Positions 3,302-45,805 of a DNA stretch of 64,000 bases are shown here, piece by piece. Positions within the stretch are counted from its first letter, which is position 1. The number at the start of each line of letters is the position of its first letter. A model generated the notes under the pieces. That model was given only the letters and a program-made list of their open reading frames with translations, made no database searches and was not told the origin of the DNA. The DNA is from Patescibacteria group bacterium. GTDB lineage: Bacteria; Patescibacteriota; Minisyncoccia; Minisyncoccales; RBG-13-36-15. The translations under genes and the position numbers were made by a program. The stretch covers positions 8,474-72,473 of the forward strand of contig JAHCSE010000004.1 in the NCBI GenBank assembly GCA_018609195.1. The letters run 5' to 3'.

Positions 3302-4369
3302 ATGGATTATTCTTCCCAACTAAAAAAATTACTCTCGCTGACTATTCAAGCTGATGCGTCTGATTTGCATATCTCAGTTGGCCATCCGCCCGTCTTGCGA
3401 ATTACCGGGAGATTAGTTCCTCTTTTAAAAGAAAAGAAAATTGTAGGAGAAGATTCTCAGGGTTTAGCTTTTGCTTTAATGACAGAAGATCAAAAATCAC
3501 GATTTTTAAAAGAAAAAGAAATTGATTTTTCCTATAGTTTTGAAAATCGGGTCCGATTCCGAATAAATATTTTTCATCAAAGTTCAGAAATTTCTATTGC
3601 CTGTAGATTGATACCAGCGAAAATTAGAACTATTGATGAACTAAACCTTCCTCCAATTTTGCATAATTTTACTAGACCTTCTCAGGGATTTATATTAATA
3701 ACTGGTCCTTCCAGTCATGGGAAGTCCACCACTTTAGCTGCACTTATTGATGAAATAAATCATACCAGAACAGATCATATAATTACCATTGAAGATCCTA
3801 TTGAATATGTATTTAAAGATGATAGATCGATTGTTGACCAGAGAGAACTCTATCAAGATACCTTATCTTTTGCGAGAGCTTTGAGATCCACTTTCAGAGA
3901 AGATCCAGACGTAATAATGGTTGGGGAAATGAGAGATCCTGAGACGATGGCAATAGCCATTACCGCTGCTGAAACCGGCCACTTAGTTTTTGCCACTTTA
4001 CATACTAACTCAGCCGGTCAGACCATTCATCGAATTGTTGACTCCTTTGCTTCTGGGCAACAAAATCAAGTTAGAGCTCAGTTATCTGCTTCTTTATTAG
4101 GCGTGATTTCTCAGAGGTTAATCCCTAGAACGAAGGGAGGATTGATTCCAGCTTGCGAAATGCTGATTAATACTCCAGCTGTTGCCAATTTAATTCGGGA
4201 AAATAAAATTCATGAAATTCCTTTAGTGATTGAAACTTCATTAGAAATAGGAATGATTTCCCTTAATCGCTCACTTGCCAGTCTGGTTAAGGGAAAAGAA
4301 ATTTCTTTTGATAATGCCTTACGTTATTCTTTAAATCCAGCTGAATTAAGAACTCTGGTCAGGAAATAG
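3302..4369 (+). CDS. pilT: twitching-motility retraction ATPase PilT
   Basis: 355 aa. Walker A GPSSHGKST, DPDVIMVGEMRD, TGHLVFATLHT. Size and lack of an N-terminal GspE domain are typical of PilT. Confidence 0.9.
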   Translation: MDYSSQLKKLLSLTIQADASDLHISVGHPPVLRITGRLVPLLKEKKIVGEDSQGLAFALMTEDQKSRFLKEKEIDFSYSFENRVRFRINIFHQSSEISIACRLIPAKIRTIDELNLPPILHNFTRPSQGFILITGPSSHGKSTTLAALIDEINHTRTDHIITIEDPIEYVFKDDRSIVDQRELYQDTLSFARALRSTFREDPDVIMVGEMRDPETMAIAITAAETGHLVFATLHTNSAGQTIHRIVDSFASGQQNQVRAQLSASLLGVISQRLIPRTKGGLIPACEMLINTPAVANLIRENKIHEIPLVIETSLEIGMISLNRSLASLVKGKEISFDNALRYSLNPAELRTLVRK

Positions 4370-4370
4370 T

Positions 4371-5585
4371 ATGAAATTTAATTATCAAGCGAGAACCAAG
4401 ACCGGAGATATTCAATCAGGAGTGGTAGAAGCTTCCAGTCAGGAAGGGGCTTTGACTATTTTGCAAAGGTATGGTCTGTATGTCACAATTTTGGAAGAAA
4501 TTAAACCTTCTCCACTCTTTGTAAAAAGAATAAGAATATTTGAGAGAGTTTCGAGGAGAGATCGGGCGATGTTTGCCAGACAACTCTCCATTATGTTTAA
4601 ATCAAAGGTTTCTTTAGTGGAGGCTTTACGAGTTTTAGTTGCCCAGACTCCAAGCCCTTTTTTTCGAGAAAAAATTTTAAAAATTGCTGGTGAGGTAGAA
4701 GGAGGATCTCCTTTATCTAAGGCTTTATCTCGCTTCCCGAATATTTTTTCTGGCTTTTTTGTGGCTATGGTTAAATCAGGAGAAACGGCTGGAAAATTAT
4801 CTGAAGCCTTAGAATATTTAGCTGACCATTTGGAACGAGAGCATCACTTTTACTCTCGGGTCTGGGGAGCAATGCTCTATCCTGTTATGGTAATAGTGGT
4901 AATGCTTGGAGTAGTTTTGGTAATGATTCTTTTTGTCTTCCCGCAAATAGCTCAAATTGTCGAAGAAACTGGGGTGGAGCCTCCTCTCATTACCAAAATA
5001 ACCTTTGGAGTGATTAATTTTATAAGGAAATGGATAATAGCTATAGTTTTAGCTTTAATTACTGCTGTTTTATTTCTTTTTCAGTATCTAAAAACCAAGG
5101 AAGGAAAGGAAGTTCTTTCCAAATTTTCTTTGAAAACCCCTATAATTAAAAATCTTTTACAAATGATTTATCTTTCTCGTTTTGCTGAAAACCTCTCCAC
5201 TTTATTTGCAGGAGGAGTACCCATTGCCCAGGCCCTGGAGGTTTCTGGGGAAGTAGTAGGGAGCGAAGTTTACAAAAAAATTATTTTAGAAATGAGAGAT
5301 GAAGTAAGAAAAGGAGGAACCATAAGTTCTGTTTTGCAAAGATATCCTGAAGCTTTCCCTCCGGTCTTTACCCAAATGACCTTAGTTGGAGAAAGAACCG
5401 GAACTTTAGATCAGACCTTACTCCATTTGGTAAGTTTTTATCAAAAAGAAGTGGAGAGAAATTTAGAGAATATCTTGACTCTCTTGGTACCTTTCACCAT
5501 TGTTTTTTTAGGGATTATTGTCGGGGGCTTAGTAGGTTCAGTTATCCTTACTCTCTATCAAGTAGTGGGCGAATTGGGCGTTTAA
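4371..5585 (+). CDS. pilC: type IV pilus platform protein PilC (GspF family)
   Basis: 404 aa polytopic membrane protein with the duplicated GspF-type cytoplasmic domain. Follows pilT with a 1-nt gap. Confidence 0.88.
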   Translation: MKFNYQARTKTGDIQSGVVEASSQEGALTILQRYGLYVTILEEIKPSPLFVKRIRIFERVSRRDRAMFARQLSIMFKSKVSLVEALRVLVAQTPSPFFREKILKIAGEVEGGSPLSKALSRFPNIFSGFFVAMVKSGETAGKLSEALEYLADHLEREHHFYSRVWGAMLYPVMVIVVMLGVVLVMILFVFPQIAQIVEETGVEPPLITKITFGVINFIRKWIIAIVLALITAVLFLFQYLKTKEGKEVLSKFSLKTPIIKNLLQMIYLSRFAENLSTLFAGGVPIAQALEVSGEVVGSEVYKKIILEMRDEVRKGGTISSVLQRYPEAFPPVFTQMTLVGERTGTLDQTLLHLVSFYQKEVERNLENILTLLVPFTIVFLGIIVGGLVGSVILTLYQVVGELGV

Positions 5586-43729: not shown

Positions 43730-44593
43730 ATGCAAACTTTTAATTTCAATATAATATTGCAGGCTGGAATTGTCATCTTGCTTTTCTTCACAATTATGAG
43801 CCTTTATGGTTTTTTTATTGCGATCCGACCATCCAAAATTCATTCCTCTTTGACTCCGGCTAATTTTGATTTGGATTTCGAAAGCTTGACCATAAAGACA
43901 GCAGATAAAGTTGAGCTGAAAGGATGGCTTATCTCAAACCAAAATTCAGACAAAATTATCATTGCTCTTCACGGGTATCCTGCAGATAAAGGTAATATTC
44001 TTCCTGCGCTTTTGTTTCTCCAGGAAGATTTTAACCTCCTCTTTTTTGATTTTCGCTACCTGGGAGAAAGCAGCGGGTTTTACACTACTATAGGGGCAAA
44101 GGAGGTGAATGATCTTTTAGCTGCACTTTCGTTTGCAAAAGAGCGAGGTTTTAAAAAAATTGGGGTGTGGGGATTCTCTATGGGGGGAGCGGTAGCCTTA
44201 ATGACCGCCCATAAAACCTCAGATATCAATGCCATTGTAGCTGATTCAAGCTATGCAGCGCTTTCCTTGCTTTTAACTGAACCTTATCGTAATTTCGCTT
44301 TCTTTAAATATCCCTTGGCATTTTTCACGCGCCTTTGGCCCAGAATATTTCTTGGAATATCTATTACTGAAGCCTCCCCTGTCAAAAAAATAAAAGGGAT
44401 AAAAATCCCCATTTTGCTCATCCATTCCCCAGAGGATGAAGTTATTCCTTTCTCGCATGCTCTTTTATTAAAAGAAGCGCTTAAGGATAATCCCAGGGCT
44501 GAATTTTGGTTTGAGGAGGGAGCTTTACACGGGGAAATCAAAAAAGAATACCAAGAACGCATCAGAGAATTTTTCCAAAAAAATCTCCAATGA
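43730..44593 (+). CDS. alpha/beta-fold hydrolase with N-terminal membrane anchor
   Basis: 287 aa. Nucleophile elbow GFSMGG, HG oxyanion motif ALHGYP, C-terminal Asp/His region. Confidence 0.75.
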   Translation: MQTFNFNIILQAGIVILLFFTIMSLYGFFIAIRPSKIHSSLTPANFDLDFESLTIKTADKVELKGWLISNQNSDKIIIALHGYPADKGNILPALLFLQEDFNLLFFDFRYLGESSGFYTTIGAKEVNDLLAALSFAKERGFKKIGVWGFSMGGAVALMTAHKTSDINAIVADSSYAALSLLLTEPYRNFAFFKYPLAFFTRLWPRIFLGISITEASPVKKIKGIKIPILLIHSPEDEVIPFSHALLLKEALKDNPRAEFWFEEGALHGEIKKEYQERIREFFQKNLQ

Positions 44594-44644
44594 ATTTTAT
44601 AAACACATTAACTTTCTCCTTGTCGCAATGAGTAAAGCTTATTT

Positions 44645-44755
44645 TTATTTCTCACAAGTGCATTCTTCTGCCTTTTTTCCGCATCCTGAACAGGCATCAT
44701 CTTTAATTTCTCCTCCGCATTTATTACATGGTGTGCAGCCGCAAACTTGACACAT
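44645..44755 (-). CDS. 36-codon cysteine-rich small ORF (9 Cys), below the ORF-track cutoff
   Basis: Hand-translated: MCQVCGCTPCNKCGGEIKDDACSGCGKKAEECTCEK*. Lies 52 nt downstream of, and co-oriented with, the TrxR-like gene. No clear Shine-Dalgarno. Confidence 0.4.
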   Translation of the reverse strand: MCQVCGCTPCNKCGGEIKDDACSGCGKKAEECTCEK

Positions 44756-44807
44756 AATTTTTTTACATTTTTAATTAGTTATAAGAAACGACCTTTCCAA
44801 CTTTACT

Positions 44808-45725
44808 TTATGTTTGATCTGCGTATTGTTCAAGACCTTTTAACTTTTTAATAATGGAAATGGCTGCATTACAGCCCTCTCCTGCGTCTTTTGCAATCTG
44901 GGGGTTACCCCCAGTGGCGCCTCCTGCAGCATATACACCTTCTACCTTAGTGAAACTATCCTGATTAATGACAATAAATCCATCTTTTAAAGGAAGTTTG
45001 AGTTTTTCAGCAAAGGTTAAAGAAGGTGTCACCCCCAATGCTAAAAAAATTCCATCGAGGATTAGATTTTCACCATCGCTGGTCTCGGCCGCCTCCACAT
45101 TTTTTTTGCCTAAAACTTTCACAATTTTTTTCTCTTCAAGCTTTATTCCTTTTTCTCTTAGGTTCTTTTTTATATGTTCTGAAAATTTCCAAGGCCTCTT
45201 TTGGGAGAAAATAACGACACCCTTCGTAAAAGAAGTGAGTTCTAATGCTTCCTCAGCTGCATGATTCCCTTCCCCAATTACTGCGACTTTCTTGTCTTTG
45301 TAGAGAAAACCATCACATACGACACAAGTATGCACTCCTTTTCCTAAAAACTCTTTTTCTCCCTCAATTCCAGCCATAGTAGGAGCAGCTCCATTTGCAA
45401 TAATGATTGTTTTTCCGAAATATTCTTTACCCTCACCAGTTTTCATCTGAAAATCACCCTCTTTTTTTACTATATCTATAACCTCTTCCCGGAGAAGTTC
45501 TCCTCCATACCTTCTCATTTGCTCAACTGAATTTTCAAGAAGTGATAAACCTGTCGGCTCTCCTAAAATTCCAAAAATATTGCCGATTCTTTTTCCAAAA
45601 GCTAAATCTGATTCTTCTGGTTTTCCAATCACCAGAGTCTTTATTTGAGCTCTTGTCAAAAAGAGAGCAGCTTGCAATCCAGCCGGTCCCGCCCCAATAA
45701 TGATGGTATCAAAATTTTTGTTCAC
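44808..45725 (-). CDS. thioredoxin-reductase-like FAD/NAD(P) oxidoreductase
   Basis: 305 aa. GAGPAG FAD motif, redox pair CVVCDG (canonical TrxR has CATCDG), second dinucleotide fold VAVIGEGNHAAEEA. Confidence 0.8.
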   Translation of the reverse strand: MNKNFDTIIIGAGPAGLQAALFLTRAQIKTLVIGKPEESDLAFGKRIGNIFGILGEPTGLSLLENSVEQMRRYGGELLREEVIDIVKKEGDFQMKTGEGKEYFGKTIIIANGAAPTMAGIEGEKEFLGKGVHTCVVCDGFLYKDKKVAVIGEGNHAAEEALELTSFTKGVVIFSQKRPWKFSEHIKKNLREKGIKLEEKKIVKVLGKKNVEAAETSDGENLILDGIFLALGVTPSLTFAEKLKLPLKDGFIVINQDSFTKVEGVYAAGGATGGNPQIAKDAGEGCNAAISIIKKLKGLEQYADQT

Positions 45726-45805
45726 CTCATCTTTATAATAATCTCAAAAAAATAAAGGGTCAAACTAGCTTTTCTAGTGGTAAGACTTTAATCTCACCGC
45801 TTTTA

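Follow-up and report, generated by a model that had tools for sequence, protein, structure and literature searches.

In the 64,000-nucleotide stretch of Patescibacteria group bacterium DNA analysed here (contig JAHCSE010000004.1 of assembly GCA_018609195.1; hereafter the window), a 36-codon open reading frame (ORF) on the minus strand, which encodes a mini-protein with nine cysteines (Cys), is a real gene under purifying selection. The family to which it belongs is widespread yet undescribed, with no match in Pfam, NCBIfam, the PDB or the literature that we searched. With moderate confidence, we favor the view that the product is a cytoplasmic metal-thiolate mini-protein with a general role, which is encoded by an independent gene in most of its carriers and which, in the window, was lately placed behind a TRi-type thioredoxin-reductase-like flavoenzyme. 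The gene was delineated by its sequence, its homologues, the invariant Cys, codon-level selection and an AlphaFold2 (AF2) model:

44645..44755 (stop codon included), minus strand: gene of the nine-Cys mini-protein.

Translation of this ORF (window 44645-44755, minus strand, ATG...TAA) yields the 36 amino acids (aa) MCQVCGCTPCNKCGGEIKDDACSGCGKKAEECTCEK, exactly as an earlier note made from the sequence of the window had given them; the count of nine Cys, the same-strand orientation and the spacing of 52 nucleotides (nt) behind a thioredoxin-reductase-like gene were likewise correct in that note. The Cys occupy positions 2, 5, 7, 10, 13, 22, 25, 32 and 34, where they make up three CxxCG knuckles (C2QVC5G, C10NKC13G and C22SGC25G), to which C7 and, at the C-terminus, the CxC pair of C32 and C34 are added. 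As an in-frame stop is found five codons before the ATG and no alternative start is available, this ATG is the sole start of the mini-protein. Among the 382 window ORFs of at least 30 aa, the mini-protein is the highest in Cys, at 25% compared to 14.7% for the runner-up. Gene calling on an identical public contig skipped the ORF, so that the description of the window copy as unannotated was right; proteins of this 36-aa size routinely escape gene callers, as the window copy did. No Shine-Dalgarno (SD) site precedes the window copy, which has an A-rich leader. As an SD-like motif (by a loose pattern) occurs in just 9 of the 35 large window genes, most leaders being A/T-rich, a gene copy lacking SD is normal for this genome. 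The same 9 of 35 large genes suggest that translation initiation is mostly SD-independent in this Patescibacteria-like genome.

Relatives of the ORF were found in large numbers. A back-translated scan of metagenome contigs gave 268 tblastn-confirmed relatives, which bears out the conservation check that the earlier note had proposed, and in all 80 loci that we kept, the ORF starts exactly at Met-Cys and stops 34-42 codons later. A protein homologue search with a padded query (the 36 aa plus five genuine upstream codons) returned two homologues, both with all nine Cys, while a profile search of proteins, using an alignment led by a 40-aa family member, gave 165 clusters at 90% identity and an exhaustive hidden Markov model search gave 44 representatives at 50% identity. 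Family members are 34-45 aa long, some of them ending in a basic KPKK stretch or an extended acidic tail, and the contigs that host them range in GC content from 35 to 68%. Upon comparing 71 distinct coding sequences, we obtained codon-position entropies of 0.49, 0.34 and 1.33 bits for positions 1, 2 and 3, and a mean pN of 0.16 versus a mean pS of 0.84. The ratio of nonsynonymous to synonymous substitution rates (dN/dS), another check named in the earlier note, had a median of ~0.1 among 172 less saturated pairs. The third codon position varies far more than the first and second. A strong SD site lies 5-10 nt ahead of the ATG in nearly all homologues, and terminator-like hairpins lie behind 24 of 74 distinct homologues compared to 7 of 53 control regions.

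The named members stem from metagenome-assembled genomes (MAGs) of Phycisphaerae, Sedimentisphaerales, Phycisphaerales and Planctomycetota, and all are labeled 'hypothetical protein' save for a few 'predicted amidophosphoribosyltransferase' labels. Full-text literature searches by sequence motifs, Cys spacing, bacterial metallothionein and Planctomycetes retrieved no paper on the family. Viral contigs, when scanned, contained no homologue and hence gave no evidence of phage carriage, and Rfam searches detected neither a riboswitch nor a leader RNA in the window and 20 homologous loci. The mini-protein ranks among the better-conserved small genes of bacteria from anaerobic sediment, groundwater and sludge.

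The family consensus reads MCQxCGC[TS]PCxKCGxxIxxGVCSGCxKPxxxCxC and is followed by a variable tail. Over 121 aligned members, no variation is seen at C2, C5, C7, C22, C25, C32 and C34, and >90% retain C10 and C13. All nine Cys are present in 138 of 170 family sequences; a six-Cys subtype without C2, C5 and C7 accounts for 18 of them, and six miss C13 with or without loss of C10. The second knuckle varies in length among members, from CxxC to CxC. The core is composed of 26.6% Cys, 13% Gly and 8.5% Lys, while Phe, Trp, Tyr and His together account for 0.7% over 130 distinct family cores and are entirely missing from the window copy. Most members end in a short Lys-rich tail. A subgroup (P0006, P0023, P0026, P0084, P0088, P0104 and others) instead carries a poly-Asp/Glu tail of 25-60 residues that ends in Trp, Tyr-Ser or Tyr-Asn, with an unchanged core. 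A 397-aa metagenome protein, P0022, consists of about eleven tandem CxxCG-x6-CTCEK repeats and a non-repetitive C-terminal domain; as the four-Cys C-terminal module of the family (CxxCG-x6-CxC) is thus repeated about eleven times, P0022 suggests that this module is able to work as an independent unit.

Comparison with known families returned weak similarities. The window peptide had no match in Pfam or NCBIfam, and scans of 121 and 28 family members against the same collections gave nothing above threshold. The sub-threshold matches in members were zf_C2H2_13, Metallothio_Euk (17 of 121 members, best E 0.13), Zn_Ribbon_1 (5 of 121 members, best E 0.0044), zf-dskA_traR and DUF1289 in Pfam, and NuoE in NCBIfam. 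A profile search of the PDB gave only weak alignments over C10-C25, to the zinc ribbons of L37e (the best, E 0.039), Nop10 and Fpg. The AF2 model, built on a 121-sequence alignment, has a mean pLDDT of 85.6 and a short N-terminal helix, and its strands at residues 17-18 and 21-22 form a predicted beta-hairpin between C13 and C22. Foldseek comparison of this model with the PDB gave no match with E below 1, the non-significant list consisting mostly of zinc ribbons, rubredoxin and rubrerythrin.

Upon sorting 83 loci by gene neighbourhood, we obtained 45 unrelated groups, to which exact look-ups added three contexts, and no maturase, transporter or regulator recurred among the 45 groups. Overall, the mini-protein gene stands by itself, its neighbours tending mildly, and with weak statistical support, to redox and stress functions. 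That the gene mostly stands alone with its own strong ribosome-binding site, and often with its own terminator, suggests a general-purpose role rather than one half of a fixed two-gene system.

Our proposal of a metal-thiolate mini-protein builds on the composition of the core. As a hydrophobic core is absent, either metal-thiolate bonds or disulfides must hold the fold, and as the protein is cytoplasmic with three CxxCG knuckles, metal appears likelier than disulfides. We thus expect, from the sequence, that the mini-protein binds metal. The thiolates would most likely enclose two or three ions of Zn, Fe or Cu, arranged either as two nested Cys4 sites or as one metal-thiolate cluster, and this metal centre would constitute the functional unit of a general-purpose small metalloprotein, that is, a metal/thiol buffer or a small carrier. 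Three arrangements of the sites are possible: a nested Cys4 pair (C10/C13/C22/C25 and C2/C5/C32/C34), which the zinc-ribbon similarity favors; a module of C22/C25/C32/C34 with an N-terminal five-Cys site, which the P0022 repeats and the natural variants favor; or one M3Cys9-type cluster, which fits the CxxC/CxC interchange in the second knuckle. Within the metal-thiolate proposal, a metallothionein-like metal/thiol buffer is about as likely as a zinc-finger adaptor, and a link to oxidative stress may exist. Whichever metal is bound, nine Cys within 34 residues that lack a hydrophobic core would represent an extreme metal-to-protein design.

Several observations weigh against this proposal. The non-Cys positions are 65-80% identical across phyla, which is well above the metallothionein norm and hints at a specific partner. 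The natural six-, seven- and eight-Cys variants fit no single simple two-site model cleanly, the charge of the tail ranges from strongly basic to strongly acidic across members, and the AF2 model contains no metals. Furthermore, a few neighbourhoods (flavoenzymes that depend on small Fe or Fe-S proteins, superoxide dismutase, flavodiiron and csbD-like genes) point to a specific redox role.

Metallothioneins offer one comparison. Like the vertebrate metallothionein with its nine-Cys M3S9 beta-domain, and like SmtA/BmtA and MymT, the mini-protein combines a low mass with ~25% Cys in CxC and CxxC motifs, and it is rich in Lys, Gly and Ser and essentially free of aromatics and His. Nine Cys is also the count of an M(II)3Cys9 cluster. 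In contrast to metallothioneins, however, its non-Cys residues are strongly conserved between phyla, its regular CxxCG knuckles, together with the hairpin predicted by AF2, give the appearance of a defined fold, and it falls into no metallothionein family of Pfam (the best E being the 0.13 given above). With nine Cys in 34 residues and an obligatory N-terminal Met-Cys, the mini-protein fits no described metallothionein or zinc-ribbon family, and judged by its sequence, the family probably belongs with the Cys-rich metal-binding micro-proteins.

A zinc-finger micro-protein that binds a conserved macromolecule (protein, RNA or DNA) as a regulator or adaptor, comparable to the haloarchaeal C(P)XCG micro-proteins, is a possible alternative that we hold to be unlikely. 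It would account for the three CxxCG motifs within <70 aa, for zinc ribbons (L37e, Nop10, Fpg; Zn_Ribbon_1, zf-dskA_traR) being the best weak similarities, for the unusual conservation of non-Cys positions between phyla and for the Lys-rich tails of many members, and small one-domain zinc-finger proteins are already a known class (PMC6562870, PMC11241148). According to these papers, the haloarchaeal proteins (HVO_2753, HVO_0758, Brz) resemble the mini-protein in being <70 aa, cytoplasmic, made up almost wholly of CxxCG knuckles, mostly standalone and mostly of unknown function; with its three knuckles, the mini-protein also has the at least two knuckles in <70 aa by which this group is defined. 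It differs from them in that no sequence or fold relationship is detectable, in packing nine Cys, with CGC and CTC motifs among them, into a core of 34 residues, in its obligatory N-terminal Met-Cys, and in being bacterial (the named Phycisphaerae, Sedimentisphaerales and Planctomycetota, as well as the Patescibacteria-like window). Zinc-ribbon families likewise gave no significant sequence or fold match (L37e, E 0.039; Zn_Ribbon_1, 0.0044; Foldseek, E above 1, which also means that no structural match in the PDB supports an adaptor). Nine Cys moreover exceed the need of one or two structural sites, acidic-tailed members occur, and the gene context suggests no partner.

The remaining alternatives involve the gene upstream of the mini-protein, whose assignment is based on Pyr_redox_2, a match to PDB entry 5NII and the motifs listed here along with the other elements of the locus:

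44756..44807 (52 nt), minus strand: A/T-rich spacer from the reductase stop to the mini-protein ATG, read from the sequence.

44808..45725, minus strand: TRi-type thioredoxin-reductase-like flavoenzyme, 305 aa.

45195-45206, minus strand: SQKR of the reductase, at the HRRD position of NADPH-dependent enzymes.

45249-45275, minus strand: GEGNHAAEE of the reductase, at the GGGxxAxE position of NADPH-dependent enzymes.

45315-45326, minus strand: redox pair C134-V-V-C137-D-G of the reductase.

45336-45344, minus strand: GKG (residues 128-130) of the reductase.

45678-45695, minus strand: flavin adenine dinucleotide (FAD) motif GAGPAG of the reductase.

45735..45763, minus strand: sigma-70-like promoter match (TTGACC, 17 nt, TATTAT) upstream of the reductase, by consensus match only.

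The reductase scores 221 bits against TIGR01292, below the cut-off of 343 for a canonical NADPH thioredoxin reductase. Its best PDB match is 5NII (E 1.6e-46), which outscores both the ferredoxin-dependent FFTR structures 6GNA and 6GNC (about 1e-25 to 1e-28) and the E. coli enzyme. Where NADPH-dependent enzymes have GGGxxAxE and HRRD, the 5NII chain has GEGVFAAN and TQGK; in keeping with this motif match, 5NII is taken to be DvTRi, the 'isolated' reductase of Desulfovibrio vulgaris. DvTRi is not reduced by NADH or NADPH and is induced by O2, its physiological reductant being unknown, and TRi enzymes are recognized by a CxxC, a thioredoxin-binding G[R/K]G, a degenerate GGGxxAxE and the replacement of HRRD by TQ/NGK (Valette et al. 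2017, PMC5627308). The window reductase shares with DvTRi the CxxC (CVVC 134-137), the G[R/K]G (GKG 128-130), GEG in place of GGG and an [ST]Q-type motif at the HRRD position. Its GEGNHAAEE resembles the GEGVFAAN of 5NII. Its SQKR is close but not identical to the published TQ/NGK (relatives read SQGK, TQGE or SNGK), and it has VHT where TRi has VSY. With this partial agreement in motifs, the enzyme is probably TRi-like and NAD(P)H-independent. The CVVCDG active site reported in the earlier note is present, and its thioredoxin-reductase-like label holds as far as homology goes, while the 5NII match and the motifs make TRi-type, with probable NAD(P)H independence, the better name.

Homologues of the window reductase occur in Parcubacteria and DPANN archaea rather than in Desulfovibrionales or Clostridia. 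At 53-57% identity, homologues from three lineages have a small Rieske 2Fe-2S gene directly upstream, encoding 74-101 aa with a CxH...CPCH motif and either overlapping the reductase by 4 nt or lying 8 nt apart from it, an arrangement that DvTRi does not share. These Rieske and reductase loci are:

L095:2199-3415, first locus of a lineage that also includes L096.

L096:1521-2737, second locus of that lineage.

L099:964-2111, a further lineage.

L100:2253-3412, a further lineage.

The Rieske gene is absent upstream in two other reductase lineages (L097/L098 and the archaeal L101-L103). The Rieske ferredoxin and the reductase look like a conserved operon, which suggests the Rieske protein as a candidate electron donor of NAD(P)H-independent TRi-type reductases; no paper linking Rieske with TRi was found in the searched literature. 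The 64-kb window contains no thioredoxin, glutaredoxin, rubredoxin, ferredoxin, flavodoxin, peroxiredoxin, DUF378 or Rieske gene.

Reductase and mini-protein are probably co-transcribed, as the 52-nt spacer holds no predicted promoter-like or terminator-like site and the only promoter match, which is the sole candidate promoter for the two-gene unit, lies upstream of the reductase. A genome scan using the reductase gave two loci only. On contig L094, whose reductase is 90% identical to that of the window, the mini-protein starts 51 nt after the reductase stop and reads ATG TGT CAA GTT TGC GGC TGC ACT CCG TGC ACT AAA TGC GGG up to the end of the contig; over these 14 codons it differs from the window by four synonymous changes and one replacement. 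In L002, a Patescibacteria MAG with a reductase 83% identical, gene order matches that of the window at uvrA, the reductase and the following hydrolase, and the slot between reductase and hydrolase (3919-4811) holds no mini-protein, being filled with a 232-aa hydrolase gene that is unrelated and runs in the opposite direction. The corresponding variable slot of the window spans 44585-44807, between the reductase and a conserved 287-aa alpha/beta-hydrolase, and is occupied by the mini-protein in the window and L094. As the pair is present at 90% identity and the slot is otherwise filled at 83%, the pairing is real yet shallow, recent and lineage-specific, in a variable slot, and not a conserved pair. 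The outcomes that the earlier note had named as speaking against the ORF, namely its disruption or absence in close relatives and a lack of codon-level conservation, were not observed: codons are conserved, and the ORF persists behind the reductase of the closer relative, although another gene fills this slot in the more distant one. The functional gene pair that the note implied does not hold in general, with >90 other loci having unrelated neighbours. The link with the reductase is therefore weaker than that note implied, and a single locus had given little indication of how widespread the ORF is.

Given this reductase, the mini-protein could be an ultra-small electron carrier (a rubredoxin/desulforedoxin-type Fe(Cys)4 protein or one with a small Fe-S cluster) that donates to flavoenzymes, here the TRi-type reductase, a reading that we regard as doubtful. 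The reductase is closest to 5NII and has no HRRD, and its relatives at 53-57% identity encode a small Rieske Fe-S protein in the adjacent slot; genes for Rieske, ferredoxin, rubredoxin, flavodoxin and thioredoxin are absent from the window. Rubredoxins and ferredoxins are typically standalone genes with occasional flavoenzyme neighbours, which would suit the scattered contexts of the family. In L004, the gene directly before the mini-protein encodes another flavoenzyme dependent on a small carrier and unrelated to the reductase (408 aa, of the ferredoxin-NAD+ reductase family, HcaD, AndAa, NorW-like), and a terminator follows the mini-protein. A Pyr_redox_2 flavoenzyme lies directly upstream on the same strand in 2 of 43 contexts (post hoc binomial P 0.007-0.07). 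In addition, a TRi enzyme needs a donor other than a pyridine nucleotide (PMC5627308). The mini-protein also shares with rubredoxin and the 36-aa Fe(Cys)4 desulforedoxin of Desulfovibrio gigas the CxxCG knuckle pairs, a size near that of desulforedoxin, and an occurrence in genomes from anoxic habitats, occasionally beside flavoenzymes that use small Fe/Fe-S carriers. Rubredoxin and rubrerythrin are among its non-significant Foldseek matches.

Set against this, such an upstream neighbour is missing from the other 43 of 45 context groups, the 83% relative lacks the pair, and terminators part the mini-protein from the FMN_red and flavodiiron genes in L013 and L082. The mini-protein differs from rubredoxin and desulforedoxin in having five additional conserved Cys, central knuckles that are 8 residues apart, no aromatic core and no Pfam rubredoxin or ferredoxin match; many of its tails are basic, unlike those of typical acidic carriers, and the second knuckle changes in length from CxxC to CxC. 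More doubtful than a carrier as such is the fuller version of this idea, in which the mini-protein would be a new ~36-aa class of Fe or Fe-S carrier and the missing TRi reductant, replacing, in the window lineage, the Rieske ferredoxin of related CPR bacteria and serving flavoenzymes of the ferredoxin-reductase type in other anaerobes. The window locus and the Rieske-reductase operons of its relatives nevertheless provide two concrete candidate donors for TRi-type reductases.

Very unlikely, in our assessment, is that the mini-protein serves as a redox substrate, namely a thiol/disulfide buffer or zinc-thiolate switch that the CVVC flavoenzyme re-reduces in the place of thioredoxin. The probable co-transcription of the two genes, the absence of a thioredoxin gene from the window and the stress-related genes that adjoin other members (superoxide dismutase; csbD-like; FMN_red and flavodiiron) would be consistent with it, but the pairing is confined to one shallow lineage, the 36-aa peptide has no thioredoxin fold, and TRi keeps the GKG thioredoxin-docking motif, DvTRi reducing canonical Trx1 (PMC5627308).

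The option of a precursor peptide, raised in the earlier note, would here mean a ribosomally synthesized and post-translationally modified product such as a SCIFF, ranthipeptide or sactipeptide. It would suit the small size and the richness in Cys, but we rejected it as highly improbable: no maturase is found in the 45 independent neighbourhoods (radical-SAM, YcaO, Lan and peptidase/transporter genes recur in none of 129 immediate neighbours or 45 context groups), conservation is uniform from M1-C2 to C34 with only the tail varying and hence no division into leader and core, and signal or export features are absent. A chance ORF or non-coding sequence, to which the lack of an SD site in the window copy and its omission by gene callers might point, can be set aside, as the codon-position entropy and dN/dS of the homologues oppose it, hundreds of homologues share its start and stop, and the genome is mostly without SD sites anyway.

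The neighbourhoods contain one frequent neighbour, the uncharacterised two-helix membrane protein DUF378 (PF04070), which is adjacent in 20 of 83 loci. It lies mostly upstream of the mini-protein and, in L027 and L030, downstream with a 10-nt gap, and the copies beside the mini-protein have a minimum identity of 57%. The adjacency may be a real, partial functional link. Examples, to which 17 further loci can be added, are:

L027:5122-5322, DUF378 beside the mini-protein.

L010:476-838, DUF378 beside the mini-protein.

L038:1334-1564, DUF378 beside the mini-protein.

Behind the mini-protein, the DUF378 clade has another small ORF, of 67-75 aa (L059:2205-2432, L020:5151-5354 and four more loci). 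Its product, which abounds in Cys and His (for example ...CTSEGHGTHLCHLMYEGFHLSHPQEY...CQNCGR...), gave no match in Pfam or NCBIfam.

Other neighbours occur in few loci. The FMN_red and flavodiiron-type genes downstream of the mini-protein belong to one lineage (L013, L082; two versions, 78-86% identical) with a terminator in between, so that we rejected a conserved operon of the three genes. Fe/Mn superoxide dismutase genes lie near the mini-protein in two cases. DLH-type hydrolases, which are common, occur near three mini-protein loci, and as these hydrolases do not form a single homology cluster, a link between the mini-protein and the convergent alpha/beta-hydrolase was rejected as well. 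In one lineage, a csbD/YjbJ-like general-stress gene lies directly upstream (read-through ORFs P0297 and P0035). A further family member, L092:4001-4120 (GCA_053530555.1), is located on a 109-kb contig between CitG/DUF447 and leuA/ilvB genes, a neighbourhood that might be archaeal.

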